Of a stretch of 64,000 bases of DNA, positions 3,001 through 15,000 are shown one piece after another. Made by a program: the position numbers. Position 1 is the stretch's first letter; each line of letters starts with the position of its first letter. The stretch comes from an uncultured Lentisphaerota bacterium. GTDB taxonomy: Bacteria > Verrucomicrobiota > Kiritimatiellia > RFP12 > UBA1067. Where the stretch lies: NCBI GenBank assembly GCA_946413265.1, contig CAMKJU010000001.1:51592-115591 (forward strand), read 5' to 3'.

Positions 3001-6000
3001 GCACGTCCATCTTTGACCGCCCCGACAAGGACTCGCAATGGAACCCCGCCACGATGCGGTGGGAGCGCCCGTGGCTCCCCGGCGAGAAGGAGGCCGAGGC
3101 CGCGCAGCGGATGAACCCCGTCCTCGCGGAGCGCGAGCAGTTCCGCCATGGGCTTGCTGACGAGTCTGCTGCGGCGAAGGCGCAACAGGAGCGGGAGCTT
3201 TTCGACTACAAGCTCACGCAGAAGCAGAAGATGGAGCTTGCTGCGATCAACGACGCGCTGGAGGAGGCACGCAAGTCGGGACGCTACACGCCGGAGGAGA
3301 TGGCGGAGCTTGAGCAGCAGGCGCTCGTCCGCCGCGCCGGAATCAAGCCCCTTCCCACGCCGCGCGAGAAGGACGCGCAGAAGGCGTTCGACGAGCGCAT
3401 CGTCACGGCCGGAGGCATACAGGGCTACATCAACTCAAAGGGCGACTTCGAGCCGTTCCAGAATCCGAACGCGAAAAACGAGAAGCGCCTCACTCTCAAC
3501 GACGTGCTGAAGAACGTGCCGATGAGGGAACTGGACCCCACAGACAAGACTGGCTTGAAGGAAATCGACATCCCGATTGACAGGCGTCTCGATACGGCGC
3601 AGAAAATCCTCGACCGAATCTACCCGCCGCAATCAGCCTCTACGGAAGCGTCCGGCATCGACCCCGTGATACAGCGGACGATCGACCCGCTCGGCATGTC
3701 GTTCCCGCAGGGTGCGGAGCAGCCGCCCGTCGGGCCGTATGCCCCGCCTCCGCCGCCAACGCCGGAGGAGACGAGAAAGAAGTGGTCTGCTTTCAAGGCA
3801 CAGTAGGAGGTTTCCCATGAAGAACGTGACGCCGATGATCACCAGTTCCGGCGAACGCTACGACATACCCGACGACCAGCGGGACGCGTTCGCCGCAGAC
3901 TTCGGAGACTCAGCACAGCCGGTCCGCATGTACCGCACCGCCGACGGCGACTACAACATACCCGAAAGCCAGGCTGCGGATTTCGTGAAGGACTTCCCCG
4001 ACGCGAAGCCCGTCCGCACAATCCAGTTCGCCGGCGGCGAGACGCGCTCGTTCGACCCGGACGAGTTGCAGAAGTTCCTCTCGGAGGAATACGTCACCTC
4101 GCCCGACTACAAGGCCGACCGCGACGAGGACGCCCAGCGGCAGAGGGAAAAGGACGAGAAGGAATACCGTGAATACCGGGACTCCATCCCCTACGAGCAG
4201 CTCATGGAGGAGTTCCACGGCGACGAGCTGCGCCTCCGCAAGAAGTTCTACGAGGAGAACCAGAAGGCGGACTCGCCCTTCATGGCGGGATTGAAGGAGT
4301 TCGGCAGGGAGTTCCACGCGAACGTGTCGGCAGGCGCGAACGCCGCCGTCACGCCGTGGTCGAGCAAGGTGTCCGGCCTCGTCAAGGAGGCGGGGCTTCT
4401 TCTCTCCAGTTTCGGCGCGGACAAGGCTGGCGAGGCCGTCGTTGACGTCGGGCGCGGCATCGACCAGTGGACGAACATCCTCTTCCGCCCAGATCTCGCC
4501 GAAGAGGAAAGCACGGTGATGGACGCCACGAAGAAAGGCGTCGGCATCATGTCGGAGATCGGCTCGTGGTACGCCGCGCTCAAGGCCGGAGGTGCGACGG
4601 GCGTAGCCGGGCTCACCCTCTCCGCGAACGCCAACTCATACGTGAACCTCTACGACACGGCGACCGCACGGGGCGCGTCGCCGGAAGAGGCCGGGCGCAT
4701 AGCCACGCTCGGCGGCGTTGGCGACGCGGCGGTGACGCTGGCGTTCGCCGCCGCGCCCGTCCACAGGATTGCAAATGCGTTCGGCTTCTCCGGCTCGTCG
4801 TTCGCCGCAAGGGGCGTCAAGGAGGCGGCTGGCAAGGGCTGGCAGGCCATCAAGCGCGCCCTCGGCATAGGCGCGGGGAAGCAGATGCTCGCGAACGCTG
4901 CCGTGAGCGCGGCGGAGGTTGGCGGGCTCTCTGCCGTGTCGCGCGGGTTCGACGAGGCCATGCAGGAGGAGGCCAGGGGCGAACCGCTCGACTGGGAGAA
5001 GATCATGGACGCCGTGAAGGAAGGCGGCATCGAGGGCGGCGCGATAGGCGGCATCCTCGCCCTTCTCCCGACGCCCGCGAAGATACGCGAGACGATCAAG
5101 ACCGGGGAGCGCACGATGGCGTCGCTCCCGCACTCTGCCGAGGGCCGCGAGATACTTGCGCGCAACGCGCCGGAGGCGATGGCCGACTTCCTCGAAGCCT
5201 ACGAGAAAGGCGGAGCTCCGTCCCGCAAGCAGCTGAACGACATCGGCGTGCCGGACTCCGCCGCGCCGACGGCAGCCGACCGCGTGAAGCTGGCAAAGCT
5301 CTTCGAGATGGGCGGGTACAAGTCGAAGGAATTGCGCACGGGCAAGGTGAACCCAGAGGGTTCGATTGAGGCGGAGGTCGTTTCGGAGGGGCCCGCGCCA
5401 GCCGAACCAACCAAGGGCGAGGTCGTGCCGGTCGAGCCGGAGCCCGTCAAGCCGCCGGAAAAGTCGGTTGAAACGACGCCCGTGCCAGTTGAGCCGCCGA
5501 AGCCACCCGCAGGGACGCCGAAAAACGGCCCTGAGAGCGTTCCGCCGCCGGAAGGCACAACTACGCCGCCGGAACCTGCGGAGCCGTCACAGGGCGGAAA
5601 ACCAGCGGAAGACGCCGCGCCAGTTCTTAGCGGGGACGAGGTGCGGAAGACCATGCCGGGTTACGACCCGAAAAACTGGCGCACGCACGTGGACAAGACC
5701 GGCTACGTCGCGCCGCGCATGGAGGCGGAGTTCCAGCGTCTTCTGAAAGACCGCAAGGGCAAGGGCAACGGCGAAGTCGTGTTTCTCGCTGGCGGCAACG
5801 GCAGCGGAAAGTCAACCGTGGCAAATGCAGAGGGAGCGGAGGCGGACTTCATCATCGACTCCACCCTCGGCAACCTTGAAGTGGCGAAGAAGCAGATCGA
5901 AGCCGTTCTCTCAAACGGGCAGAAACCCGCAATTGACTTTGTGTACCGTACGCCAGAACAGGCGCTAAAGGGCGTTGTCGAGCGAGTAGAGAACGGCGGA

Positions 6001-12000: not shown

Positions 12001-15000
12001 AAGGACATCCGCCCGTACTGGGACGCGAACCGTGCCCTCATGGCCGACCGCGACATGCCGCGCAAGGAACGCCTCGACCGCATGGACGAGAACACCCGCA
12101 AGGCCACGGACGCGATCCGCGCCATGTCGAAGGACGAGGCCGAGCTCCGCAGCCACGGCATGAAGGCGCTCGCCGCCAAGCTGGCCAACCCCTCCGCGAC
12201 CGGCGACTCGTGGGAGCGGGCCGCGAAGATGCTGAAGGCCGACGGCGCGACGCTCCAGGAAACGCAAAGTGCGCTCCGCCTCTACGGCAGAGCGCACGGG
12301 TGGACGCGGGACACGGTGAACAAGCGCCTGCGGCTCCTCTCCGCTAGGTGGAAGTAGCCTCCAGCCGCGCCATGCGCCTCTCGTACATCGTCCTGTAATC
12401 GACGGCGATCCGCCCGGCGAGCAGGTTCCGCGCCCACCCCGCCGGGGCCATGCCGTACGCCCACGCCGCCTTCCGCGCCTTCACGGCGTGGTACGCCGAG
12501 AGCGTCACGCCCCCGACGTCCACGCCGTCCGGCCACTTCCGGCACAGCTTCTCGACCTCGAACCAGTCGCCGTCCACGAAGGGAACCTCCTCCAGGGCGG
12601 CGACCAGCCTCTCGGCGGGCGTCTCGGCCCTACGCGACATGCGCAGCCCTCCCGCTGGCATGCCAGGCACGGAGCGCGCGCCGCGTCTCCCGCAGCCGCT
12701 CGTGCGCCTTGCACCCGCGGAGGATCCGTCCCACGAGGCGCAGCGGCGTGACGTGCGCGGCCTCGGCCGCCCTGCCCACGCGGTAGCGCATCACGCGGTC
12801 CATGCGCACCCCGCACACCGTCGCGAACTCCGGCGAGCCGTCCCTCGAATCCTCCGCGATCTTCGCGTAGTCGTCGCCGCAGAGCGCGGAGGACGGCAGC
12901 GAGGCGTTCACCGCCTCCCACCCCACGCGGTCCATCTCGCCCTCGATCACGCGCACGGCGTGGCGCACGGCCTTCGCCGGCGCGTCGTCCGCAGGCGCGG
13001 GAAGCGCGGCGGGGGCGGGACGCGTCCCCTGCGCCCCGGCGAGCGCGTGGAACACGACATCGGCGGTCGCCGCCTCGTCGCCGCGCCGGTACTCCACGTA
13101 CGCCTCCGCGCCCGTCACGCAGTCGCGCCGCACGATGAACACGGGCGACTTCCCCAGCAGGACCGCCCGCCGCACCTCCTCCGAGCCGACGCACATCAGC
13201 CCGAAGGCGTGGAGCGGGTGCCACACGCCGGGGAACGACAGCATCGGCGCGACCACGCACGGAAGCCGCCCCGCCGTCCCCAGGAGCCGCGCCGTCGCGA
13301 TGTCCGCCCCGACGGGACGGAGCCACGCCTCCGCCACCGAGCGCTCCACGAACGCGGCCACCCCGCCGAGGTCGTCGCGCCCGAGGACGCGCCGGAGGTT
13401 CGACTCCAGGGCGCGGCGCACCGCGTCGGCGTCCGCCTCCTCGTAGGGGAGGATGTGCGGCGCGGACTTCGGCACGTACCCGCGCAGAAGCTGTTCCTTC
13501 AGCGTCTTCGTCGCCCACTGGCGGAACGCGACGCCCCTCTTCGAGTTCACACGGTAGCCTACCGATATGATCGCGTCGAGGTTGTAGCACCGCACCGTCC
13601 GCGTCACCGTGCGTTTCCCCTCGATGTCAACTTGGCAAAAATCTTGCCATGTTGATTTCTCATCCAATTCGCCATCTGCGAATATGTTCTTGAGGTGAGT
13701 GCTGATGTTGCGTCGTTTGCATCCAAACAACATCGCCATCTGCTTTTGAGTGAGCCAGACGGTCTCTCCGTCCATGCGCACGTCGATCGGCTCGGCCTCC
13801 GTTGGCCGATAGACGACGATCTCGCCGTTGTTCCCGTCCCTCGCGGCGGCACCCGTGCCGTCGCATGTACCCTGCGCGTTGGTGTAGCGGGCGCGCTCCG
13901 CGTTCGTCTTGCTCATGGTCTTCTAACTCCATTTGCACGATGCGATAAAGCCCTGCCGGATGTGGTTAGAAGACGCGCCACGGGTGGACGCGGGCCGACA
14001 TCTGGCAGGGCAAACGGTTGTGGATTACCCGTTGTTCCGTCGCGAGGGATAGGTCTTCTAACTCCTATTTACCTCAGAACGGCGCAAAGTATATCACACG
14101 CCCTCGCCCCCGCGCAAGTGGGAATTTTAGATTTTTGCGCTACGTGCGCTATGGCGCGGGCGCAACAGGCGGCAGCGAGTCAAGAAAATCGCGGGCGGAG
14201 CTGAAATCGCGTATTCCGTCCACATGCTCCGCCAAGTCTTCCGGGACGTGGTTCCCCATCGGGTCGAGGATGACGTCCACGCCTTCTCGGCGAGCCATCT
14301 TTATGGCTGGAATGAAATCGCTGTCTCCTGAAACGAGCACGACCTGGTCCACAAGCCGCTTGAGCGCGATCTCCACGAGGTCGAGGCCGAGGCGCATGTC
14401 TACGCCCTTCTGCCCGATGTCGAGCCGCACGTCGTTCTCGGCAAGCTCCGCAAGCGTCTTGCGGCCGCTGAGCAGCGCATCCTGCGTCTTCGGTTTCAGC
14501 GCGTAGCGGACGTATCCCGATCCAAGGCGTCCGCGCCGCAGTGCGACCTTCCTTTTTCCCGCGACGAGACGAAGGAACTGCGTGATTGCGGTGAACGTAG
14601 GCGACTTCGACAGGTCGATGCGCGCGTTCGTGATCGGATTCGTGACGACTGCCGAAATCGGAGGGCAATCGTAGTAGAAGATGCGGTAGAGTTCGCGCCC
14701 TTCCTTCTCGGATTCAGCCGCGTGCCGACGGCAGTAGGATTCCACGATGTCCGCGTTCCCGCCTGGATCCCTTCGCGAGAAGGAGAAGAGGTTTCGCGCC
14801 CTCGCGCGATAGAACCCGCCGTCGATAAGTATTGCCATCTTTGCCATGGGACGTCTCAATAAGTTTGGCCACGGATTCCTCAACTCCACTTTGGCGGGAG
14901 CGATTCGCAGCGTGGCCGTCTTTTATGCCAGTCCCTTTGTGGACCAGACGCGGTTAGTATACCACGACGCCGCCCCCGGGGTCAAGCGCACCGAAAAAGT

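Follow-up and report, generated by a model that had tools for sequence, protein, structure and literature searches.

A 2,846-aa LPD38-class polyvalent protein with a zeta-family kinase cassette at the end of the late operon of a temperate phage

Described giant phage proteins and the present locus

Injected giant proteins of phages are known, for example DarB of P1 and the virion RNA polymerase of N4 (PMC5512222). A model of processing and injection has been put forward for polyvalent proteins, and the LPD38 domain is confined to phage-type polyvalent proteins that are linked to virion genes (PMC5512222). One such protein is gp47 of the Stx phage phi24B, which consists of 2,811 aa and carries LPD5, LPD1, a MuF-C metallopeptidase, and LPD38. 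It is abundant in virions by mass spectrometry and has been proposed to be an ejection protein (10.64898/2026.04.10.717836).

The protein analyzed here has in common with the LPD38 polyvalent proteins (PMC5512222) that it is a giant polypeptide encoded in a structural operon, with a zincin HExxH...E motif, LPD38, and LPD3, and that unrelated enzymatic domains are joined by linkers in an extensive mosaic. In terms of the features used by Iyer et al. 2017, a Zeta_toxin kinase, the zincin HExxH...E, LPD3, and LPD38 are found in one frame, and this frame is phage-encoded and linked to TerL, an SU10-type adaptor, and an integrase. A preliminary description of this DNA had called the product a phage-type polyvalent protein, and the assignment is upheld by the unrelated enzyme-like domains, the zincin-like metallopeptidase, and LPD38 at the end of a structural operon. 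This kind of protein has already been described, and what is new here is the mosaic, not the type of system. The words "zeta toxin" and "clamp" are absent from the main text of PMC5512222; thus, the kinase and the DnaN-like unit apparently lie outside its main-text catalogue. The protein resembles phi24B gp47 in its near-equal size, in LPD38 and a metallopeptidase, and in belonging to a temperate, probably short-tailed phage, whereas the payload domains and the host phylum differ, and gp47 has been detected in virions while the present protein is known from its gene alone. Their kinship is only that Pfam LPD38 and a zincin are in common, and no Stx phage is among the tblastn matches listed. 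The likeness to P1 DarB and N4 virion RNA polymerase is one of concept, i.e., a very large capsid-carried enzyme that acts at once in the new host, and no homology to the DarB methylase-helicase or N4 RNA polymerase modules was detected.

The window, which is the whole stretch of 64,000 nucleotides that was analyzed, is a circular phage genome of 50,933 bp wrapped on itself. Because positions 1-13067 equal 50934-64000 with 0 mismatches in self-comparison, the gene at 3817-12357 and its copy at 54750-63290 are one and the same. The genome encodes an integrase, Sak4, a Cas4-like exonuclease, a helicase, a prim-pol, TerL, and an SU10_adaptor protein, and its structural genes are mostly without family match. 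The phage carries an integrase and is temperate. A single SU10_adaptor match, together with no matches to tape-measure or sheath proteins, suggests that it is probably short-tailed. The genes discussed are as follows.

88..3806, + strand: four upstream late-operon genes of 402, 254, 197, and 377 aa, without family matches
3817..12357, again 54750-63290 (the window wraps the 50,933-bp genome), + strand: giant polyvalent protein gene, from its ORF

The giant gene is the last in the late (structural) operon and co-oriented with the genes upstream. It lies in an open frame at 3712-12357 (+), and its start is likely ATG 3817, which is preceded by AGGAGG 7 nt ahead and separated by 10 nt from the stop of the preceding gene. 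The ORF, ATG, and AGGAGG agree with the earlier reading of a protein of 2,846 aa (plus stop) at 3817-12357 (+). Among the four upstream genes, those of 402, 254, and 377 aa are matched ahead of the giant gene in the related loci L006 and/or L008, and the 197-aa gene has no match there; all four are candidate tail or ejection partners. The downstream neighbors, a RhuM-like gene and an NYN/PIN RNase, are convergent and accessory-like. No small adjoining gene in a toxin-antitoxin arrangement is present among the called neighbors. Relatives of the giant gene, which are found in Kiritimatiellia and Puniceicoccales MAGs, sit after tail genes.

Mosaic layout and the payload cassettes

The protein has a conserved N-terminal module, three payload cassettes (a zeta-family kinase, a DnaN-domain-like unit, and LPD3) connected by Pro-rich linkers, and a conserved C-terminal core of ~1,180 aa.

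3817..5436, + strand: N-terminal module, aa 1-540, from BLAST maps against relatives
5437..5676, + strand: Pro-rich low-complexity linker 1, aa 541-620, a recombination boundary between modules
5677..6216, + strand: zeta-toxin-family P-loop kinase cassette, aa 621-800, from Pfam and motifs
6457..6816, + strand: small conserved domain, aa 881-1000, always ahead of the clamp-like unit in relatives
6844..7446, + strand: DnaN (beta-clamp) domain III-like module, aa ~1010-1210, from homologue matches and motifs, degenerate here
7909..8604, + strand: extended LPD3 module, aa 1365-1596 (Pfam LPD3 at aa 1430-1533, nt 8104-8415)
8857..9396, + strand: zincin-like metallopeptidase, aa 1681-1860, from invariant H/E/H/E and AF2 topology
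9397..11376, + strand: all-alpha middle of the C-terminal core, aa 1861-2520, from alignment and AF2
11380..11856, + strand: LPD38 domain, aa 2522-2680, from Pfam
11857..12354, + strand: helical C-terminal tail, aa 2681-2846, from alignment and AF2

In BLAST maps, the closest relative of each module is a different protein. The Zeta cassette is 65-97% identical among proteins that are otherwise different. Its GC is 0.567 and its GC3 0.667, those of the LPD3 cassette are 0.583 and 0.750, and the C-terminal core has a GC of 0.65-0.69 and a GC3 of 0.92-0.94, against a GC3 of 0.857 for the whole gene. The lower GC of the kinase-like and LPD3-like stretches, pointed out in the preliminary description, is thus seen also in GC3, and the dips recur in relatives. 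The domain-level acquisition proposed there is well supported by these sequence comparisons, namely by the different nearest relatives, the shared Zeta cassette, and the recurring GC3 dips. The suggestion that the exact combination of domains may be new also holds, in that none of about 207 collected relatives has the full combination. Novelty of this sort is to be expected in a combinatorial polyvalent family, in which shuffling is typical (Iyer et al. 2017; phi24B gp47).

The N-terminal module has, at its very start, three repeats of ~28 aa (G-E/D-x-Y-D/N-I-P...D-F), after which it is Gly/Ala-rich with one hydrophobic stretch at aa 294-322. It is common to relatives with different payloads (in BLAST maps, 86% in P0004, 76% in P0014, 42% in P0015, and 28% in P0095) and has no match in Pfam, PHROG, or phage records. 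We propose that it serves as a virion-incorporation or chassis part.

The presence of a P-loop GGNGSGKS kinase with zeta-like features, noticed earlier, is confirmed by a Pfam match of Zeta_toxin (PF06414) to aa 676-765 (E 9.5e-11, 41.9 bits, cut-off 22.3). Walker A GGNGSGKS occupies aa 659-666 (nt 5791-5814), and the cassette also has GGH-x-VSP and DNS motifs. It is like zeta/PezT toxins, Neisseria zeta_1 (PDB 6EPH), and AvrRxo1 in its P-loop kinase fold and Walker A, and probably in the Asp that follows the next strand; the direct match to 6EPH is weak (E 0.024). In canonical zeta/PezT toxins the catalytic Asp is located about 21 residues past the Walker lysine, and GTXR is the UDP-GlcNAc-binding motif of canonical zeta toxins (PMC6362051). 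In the cassette, D681 at the end of the beta-2-like FIID, invariant in 8 cassettes, is 16 residues past K665, and Pfam places FIIDSTLGN on the profile from position 96 on, i.e., in its later part, so that the alignment of the Asp and of GTXR to canonical zeta is ambiguous. Unlike zeta/PezT toxins, the cassette has a shorter segment past the Asp and lacks GTXR for UDP-GlcNAc. The query reads YRTPE at this place, and the strand end there is FVY(R/Q)(T/S)P in 8/8 cassettes. Therefore, as far as motifs can tell, the substrate of a kinase without GTXR is probably another nucleotide-like molecule and not UDP-GlcNAc. A further difference from zeta/PezT toxins is that the cassette has no antitoxin gene and is embedded in a protein of 2,846 aa.

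The second cassette had been described as a beta-clamp-like segment, and this has some support through its homologues and none from direct comparison of the query with clamps. The segment itself has no clamp family match in Pfam, and phrog_37414 matches aa 1011-1101. P0024, a homologue with 32% identity to the segment over 174 aa (E 2e-7), passes the DNA_pol3_beta_3 model (E 1e-7 to 5.7e-7, 29.8 bits, cut-off 27), and relatives of the module retain ATDGR / (D)YPNWxxVIP / MP(L/M)R in DnaN order. Homologues of aa 1010-1210 thus pass the domain-III model or keep DnaN-order motifs, and the query has lost the ATDGR/YPNWxxVIP/MPLR motifs. Three direct tests were negative: a module profile against PDB sequences did not reach clamps, hhalign against E. 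coli DnaN gave a probability of 0.15, and an exhaustive HMMER profile search did not reach true clamps, the ten short proteins that it returned having no Pfam match at E <= 0.001. In contrast to DnaN, in which three domains form a ring dimer, the unit has the size of a single domain (about 190 aa) without three tandem domains. The link to clamps is accordingly a remote one, drawn from sequence by transitivity through a homologue, for one domain-sized unit.

The third cassette, regarded earlier as an LPD3-like domain of nuclease type, is LPD3 (PF18798) at aa 1430-1533 with E 1e-8 and 35.8 bits (cut-off 27), a match that shows only with aa 1340-1600 scanned alone and is absent from the full-length Pfam scan. 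The homologous modules of P0053 and P0055 are also above the LPD3 cut-off. Invariant polar residues are N, G-H, R-F-T-V-R, H, and D, and a K is nearly invariant. Against PDB, the good AF2 model of the module (pLDDT 78.4, pTM 0.81) gave no match with E under 0.018, and the nearest structures, at TM 0.2-0.3, are NTF2/ketosteroid-isomerase-like. The nuclease label is thus not supported, as neither a fold known from nucleases nor a catalytic motif of theirs was found and the segment model has no PDB counterpart. LPD3 is not among the potentially enzymatic LPDs named in PMC5512222.

The conserved C-terminal core

The core consists of the zincin-like metallopeptidase, an all-alpha region, and LPD38. 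HEIGH is at aa 1735-1739 (nt 9019-9033) and EGFAE at aa 1780-1784 (nt 9154-9168), and all of 16 homologues, the most distant at 24% identity, have H1735, E1736, H1739, and E1780. In the AF2 model (core numbering), the chain runs from a helix at 18-29 through three strands (34-36, 49-52, 57-60) to the HExxH helix (68-84) and then the Glu helix (112-126), with a pLDDT of about 70-92 in this region. The MPTase core has been described as an N-terminal helix, a three-stranded sheet, and two C-terminal helices (PMC5512222), and the predicted topology of aa 1681-1860 matches this description. Among curated peptidase families, the sole Pfam match is ATLF PF07737 under its cut-off (E 0.019, 15.1 bits, cut-off 27.4). 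The metallopeptidase previously read from HEIGH...EGFAE is in keeping with the invariant H/E/H/E and the predicted zincin topology, and the LPD38-like C-terminus with the Pfam match of LPD38 (PF18857) to aa 2522-2680 (E 4.4e-19, 69.7 bits, cut-off 27). In addition, phrog_9854 matches aa 2276-2762, and one helix of the all-alpha part, at aa 2473-2494 (nt 11233-11298), is hydrophobic and conserved.

The AF2 model of the whole core is moderate (pLDDT 70, pTM 0.55). In BFVD it matches many C-termini of phage large-polyvalent-protein-associated-domain proteins (E 4e-26 to 1e-10), which elsewhere carry MTase, RelA/SpoT, lytic transglycosylase, and ART domains. In Foldseek, neither a solved ejection protein nor any other PDB entry was similar to it; with the model only moderate, a channel or structural role is therefore a conjecture. 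Distant tblastn matches are giant genes of the short-tailed phages VvAW1, PTXU04, and B. megaterium phages. The core is homologous at 23-27% identity to Escherichia phage PTXU04 gp25 (2,197 aa), to which it is also alike by predicted fold (E 1.6e-20), and to Vibrio phage VvAW1 gp1 (3,640 aa, annotated "DNA methylase"), whereas the N-terminal and middle parts of both are unrelated to those of the giant protein. Both genes end a co-oriented run, as the giant gene ends the late operon, and the gene before VvAW1 gp1 carries the note "putative phage DNA transfer protein".

Proposed role and alternative explanations

We consider it likely that this is an LPD38-class polyvalent protein that is made late, packaged, and injected with the DNA, with payload cassettes acting on the host. 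By analogy with phi24B gp47, and with the P1 and N4 proteins cited in PMC5512222, it would be packed inside the capsid and would leave via the short tail, either together with the DNA or before it. The two conserved terminal parts may serve as a chassis by which the protein is incorporated, exits, and perhaps crosses the envelope. Its metallopeptidase may cut the polyprotein at its linkers, although no recurrent cleavage-type motif was found in the protein, or attack a host target, and the cassettes would act on the host within the first minutes of infection. An unlikely alternative is a mainly structural ejection protein, in which the conserved parts build or extend a trans-envelope conduit, the peptidase opens peptidoglycan instead of processing the protein, and the cassettes are secondary passengers. 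In its favor, it is the ~1,180-aa core that very different phages have in common, this core is mostly helical with a conserved hydrophobic helix, the gene lies where a probably short-tailed phage would have its ejection proteins, and peptidoglycan opening has been proposed by the phi24B authors for the gp47 metallopeptidase (10.64898/2026.04.10.717836). However, the core resembles no solved ejection protein, only one or two hydrophobic windows exist in 2,846 aa, and the nearest Pfam relative of the zincin is, by a weak match, a protein-cleaving family and not a cell-wall peptidase. An ejectosome role also overlaps with packaging and injection of payloads and does not exclude it.

It is highly improbable that so long an ORF is an artefact of assembly or annotation, i.e., several genes fused into a chimera or a spurious frame in GC-rich DNA. 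Many long spurious ORFs do occur in metagenome-derived high-GC sequence, such as an antisense 931-aa ORF at 8554-11349, but the sense frame has a GC3 of 0.857 against 0.63 in the antisense frame, one frame carries four Pfam families, full-length giant homologues come by the dozen from independent samples, and the C-terminal core is 94-97% identical among independent contigs. The protein may instead stay unpackaged, as a late cytoplasmic or membrane multi-enzyme protein of the producing cell or lysogen, with roles such as superinfection exclusion, abortive infection of rivals, or pre-lysis host manipulation. The phage is temperate, zeta-family kinases are classic intracellular toxins, and the convergent RhuM-like gene and NYN/PIN RNase resemble accessory or defense genes. 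Even so, we regard this as very unlikely, since the gene is tied into the structural operon on the same strand by a 10-nt gap with its own Shine-Dalgarno, has no promoter of its own and no antitoxin-like gene among the called neighbors, and is kept after tail genes in relatives. LPD38 is, moreover, restricted to virion-gene-linked phage-type polyvalent proteins (PMC5512222), and the LPD38 giant protein of phi24B is abundant in its virions (10.64898/2026.04.10.717836).

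The giant gene and its phage genome

An open reading frame for a 2,846-aa giant protein had been proposed at 3817-12357, and its reading frame was borne out. The likely start is the ATG at 3817, within an open frame of 3712-12357 (+); AGGAGG lies 7 nt before this ATG, and the upstream gene stops 10 nt before it. GC content at third codon positions (GC3) is 0.857 in the sense frame, as in a gene, against 0.63 in the long antisense frame, which is not gene-like. The 931-aa antisense ORF inside the giant gene, 8554-11349 (-), was therefore rejected as a gene. Its GC3 of 0.63 and GC1 of 0.92 are typical of shadow frames within GC-rich genes. 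The stretches 1-13067 and 50934-64000 agree with 0 mismatches, and all features of the first 13 kb occur twice. Thus, the window runs around a 50,933-bp genome more than once, and the giant ORF seen again at 54750-63290 is not a second gene.

The genome belongs to a temperate phage. Genes for an integrase, a Sak4-like annealing protein, a Cas4-like exonuclease, an SF2 helicase, a prim-pol and TerL were found, and one of the late genes gave a match to the SU10 adaptor family. With no match to a tape-measure or sheath family, the phage probably has a short tail. The giant gene ends the plus-strand late operon. Four unannotated genes (402, 254, 197 and 377 aa) lie upstream of it, and those of 402, 254 and 377 aa find matches, in unchanged order, ahead of the giant gene in one or both of two related metagenomic loci (L006, L008). 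Pfam and PHROG scans of ten neighbouring late genes gave almost no matches. Other giant homologues that could be located are preceded by two or three unannotated genes of about 270-660 aa each, and several are followed by integrase or replication genes. In one related locus (L023), the giant polyvalent gene encoding P0052 is closely followed by a Tad2-like gene of the anti-Thoeris family (PF11195; 14116-14592). Within the final 30 codons of the present giant gene, a hairpin with a 12-bp stem precedes a T-rich tail, 12269-12297 (-); it probably terminates transcription of the convergent RhuM-like operon, 12344-13916 (-).

Mosaic anatomy and the conserved core

The giant protein is a phage-type polyvalent protein (Iyer et al., 2017; PMC5512222). 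Its parts are separated by Pro-rich low-complexity linkers, and their borders were set by BLAST maps against about 207 collected relatives (P-numbers below). The linkers span aa 541-620, 801-880, 1280-1364 and 1597-1680.

Parts of the giant protein, 3817-12357 (+), delimited by BLAST maps
aa 1-540: N-terminal module
aa 621-800: kinase cassette
aa 881-1240: small domain and clamp-like unit
between the aa 881-1240 block and the LPD3 module: helical spacer
aa 1365-1596: extended LPD3 module
aa ~1665-2846: C-terminal core

In these maps the nearest relative differs for every part. For example, P0003 shares 94% identity with the core but only 29% with the N-terminus, whereas P0004 is 86% identical over the N-terminus and kinase and 31% over the core. 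P0017 matches the clamp block at 90% and the N-terminus at 23%, with no BLAST-detectable core, and in P0053 the similarity is confined to the kinase (65%) and LPD3 (43%). Eight otherwise differing proteins share the kinase cassette at 65-97% identity. It had been suggested that the exact domain combination may be new, and indeed all the parts occur together in none of the roughly 207 relatives. Most complete are P0095, whose N-terminus, clamp block and core are 27-31% identical, and four relatives that combine the N-terminus, kinase and core. Such an unseen combination is expected in a family where each lineage is known to have dozens of architectures. In Verrucomicrobium, Iyer et al. saw spare cassettes standing alone near a prophage. 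The gene is a clean example, in which the borders of a chassis (the N-terminal module and the ~1,180-aa zincin/LPD38 core) and of three payload slots are fixed to a few residues.

The N-terminal module begins with three tandem repeats of about 28 aa (aa 1-95; 3817-4100) of the pattern G-E/D-x-Y-D/N-I-P-x-x-Q-x-x-x-F-x-x-D-F. These are kept in relatives with unrelated payloads (47% identity over aa 1-97 in P0024), and may serve as a virion-incorporation signal.

Two of the proposed domains fall in the core: the metallopeptidase is well supported, and the LPD38-like C-terminus was confirmed. Across 16 homologues, the most distant at 24% identity, H1735, E1736, H1739 and E1780 do not vary, and the AlphaFold2 model around them shows a helix, three strands, the HExxH helix and the Glu helix, the arrangement described for the zincin core by Iyer et al. 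(PMC5512222). Curated peptidase families are matched only weakly (PF07737, E 0.019). LPD38 scores 69.7 bits against a cut-off of 27. The core model as a whole is of moderate quality (pLDDT 70, pTM 0.55); downstream of the zincin it is nearly all helical, with one conserved hydrophobic helix at aa 2473-2494. Foldseek searches of the PDB with this model returned generic alpha-solenoids only and no counterpart. Among predicted structures of viral proteins (BFVD), the model matches C-terminal pieces of many phage proteins annotated as "large polyvalent protein associated domain" (E 4e-26 to 1e-10), including those of Escherichia phage PTXU04 and Ralstonia phage Alix. The partner domains in the matched proteins are methylases, RelA/SpoT, lytic transglycosylase or ART. 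Pfam LPD38 therefore covers only part of a conserved chassis of about 1,100-1,200 aa.

Core relatives come from a Kiritimatiellia MAG (59% identity) and a Puniceicoccales MAG. No close relative of the giant gene was found in 50,697 GenBank phage records, PLSDB or IMG/VR: megablast against GenBank phages and PLSDB plasmids gave no match, and IMG/VR searched with the LPD3 and core alignments gave no related loci. By tblastn, giant genes of short-tailed phages were reached at 23-27% identity. One of these is in VvAW1, where the giant gene with the homologous core comes after a "DNA transfer protein" gene.

The payload cassettes

The zeta-like kinase of the preliminary description was confirmed by Pfam Zeta_toxin (41.9 bits; cut-off 22.3). 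Walker A spans aa 659-666 and the P-loop is intact; the Walker lysine (K665) and an Asp after the next strand (D681) are both kept. NCBIfam, PADLOC and PDB-sequence searches gave nothing usable except that 6EPH, the structure of Neisseria zeta_1, was matched directly but weakly (E 0.024). Canonical zeta/PezT toxins carry a GTXR motif required for UDP-GlcNAc (PMC6362051), whereas this kinase has none. Because GTXR is absent, in a region where the alignment is ambiguous, a nucleotide-like substrate other than the classic cell-wall precursor would be more likely. Among the papers searched, none links "zeta toxin" to polyvalent or ejection proteins; zeta-type kinases in such proteins are already recorded in database annotations.

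Support for the clamp-like claim is transitive only. The giant protein itself matches no clamp family, and the link runs through P0024 (32% identity, E 2e-7 to the module), which passes DNA_pol3_beta_3 (29.8 against 27). Relatives carry the motifs ATDGR, (D)YPNWxxVIP and MP(L/M)R in the order of DnaN. Clamps were not reached by the module profile, either against PDB sequences or when 1.84 billion proteins were searched exhaustively with HMMER, and hhalign with E. coli DnaN gave no link to clamps. The exhaustive search returned 245 clusters at E <= 1e-3, mostly giant proteins of 1-5.8 kaa, and ten short proteins from it matched no Pfam family at E <= 0.001. The clamp-like unit (6844-7446; family P0064-P0209) has the size of a single domain and is not a clamp that forms a ring. 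Stand-alone members of about 300-500 aa (e.g., P0067 and P0072) also occur, in which ATDGR, PDYPNWxxVIP and IMPMR are kept with no Pfam match.

LPD3 was not reported by hmmscan of the whole 2,846-aa protein. When aa 1340-1600 (7834-8616) were scanned alone, the LPD3-like domain was confirmed with 35.8 bits against 27, and the LPD3 modules of two other giant proteins also pass; long proteins rich in low-complexity sequence are thus better scanned in pieces. No support was found for the term "nuclease-type". The predicted model is good (pLDDT 78.4, pTM 0.81), and Foldseek against the PDB gave nothing better than E 0.018, the best matches being weak ones to NTF2-like folds (TM 0.2-0.3). In an 11-sequence alignment, N, G-H, R-F-T-V-R, H and D are invariant and K nearly so, an enzyme-like polar set. 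Alignments A1 and A6 were left out, as homologues of the clamp and LPD3 modules were mixed in them and LPD3 rows were misplaced by MAFFT. LPD3 is not among the potentially enzymatic LPDs named in PMC5512222. Some giant relatives (P0056, P0057 and P0058) have two extended LPD3 copies per protein.

Double LPD3 copies in two related loci
L015: 7846-8520 and 10408-11070
L017: 7912-8580 and 8848-9450

Proposed working and cassette exchange

Lower GC had been noticed in the kinase and LPD3 stretches, and the difference is real and sharpest at third codon positions. GC3 is 0.667 in the kinase cassette, 0.750 in the LPD3 cassette and 0.800 in the clamp unit, against 0.874 in the N-terminal module and 0.92-0.94 in the core. 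The kinase and LPD3 cassettes lie below the rest of their host gene in GC and GC3 in all seven relatives measured (L012-L016, L022). This recurrence argues for cassettes moving between genes, not a one-off local oddity, and points to a pool of circulating cassettes whose composition is their own; codon-usage selection inside the kinase and LPD3 cassettes could also produce the dip. A more extended reading appears unlikely as a whole. In it, the zeta-family kinase lacking GTXR, the single domain derived from DnaN and the extended LPD3 module would be exchangeable members of this pool. Unrelated phages would trade them between their giant chassis genes when these recombine in the Pro-rich linkers, with turnover too fast for the cassettes to adopt the codon composition of the host gene; LPD3 would be an enzyme with an unsolved fold, and the DnaN-derived unit a decoy for host clamp-binding proteins.

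The late-operon position, the chassis-plus-cassette layout, the intact zincin site and P-loop, and the conserved polar sets are shown. By analogy with phi24B gp47, the giant protein would be made late and packed in the capsid. That protein (2,811 aa, LPD38) is abundant in virions by proteomics and invisible in the reconstruction (10.64898/2026.04.10.717836). The giant protein would then exit through the tail along with the DNA, after which the zincin may free the cassettes by linker cleavage, as in the model put forward by Iyer et al. (PMC5512222), or attack a host substrate, for which the phi24B authors suggested peptidoglycan (10.64898/2026.04.10.717836). A search of the giant protein for a recurrent cleavage or junction motif found none; the candidate F-[SA]-P?-[RK] was rejected, with only two occurrences, both within the core.

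The accepted picture of polyvalent proteins is unchanged by this gene. Zeta-toxin and clamp-like domains go unmentioned in the main text of PMC5512222, and the LPD38 type is here extended to Kiritimatiellia phages and those of other PVC-group bacteria. Worth pursuing are the fold and chemistry of LPD3, the cassettes' compositional signature and the unit derived from DnaN. The payload modules that merit biochemistry are the zeta-family kinase lacking the UDP-GlcNAc motif, the widespread DnaN-derived single domain and LPD3.
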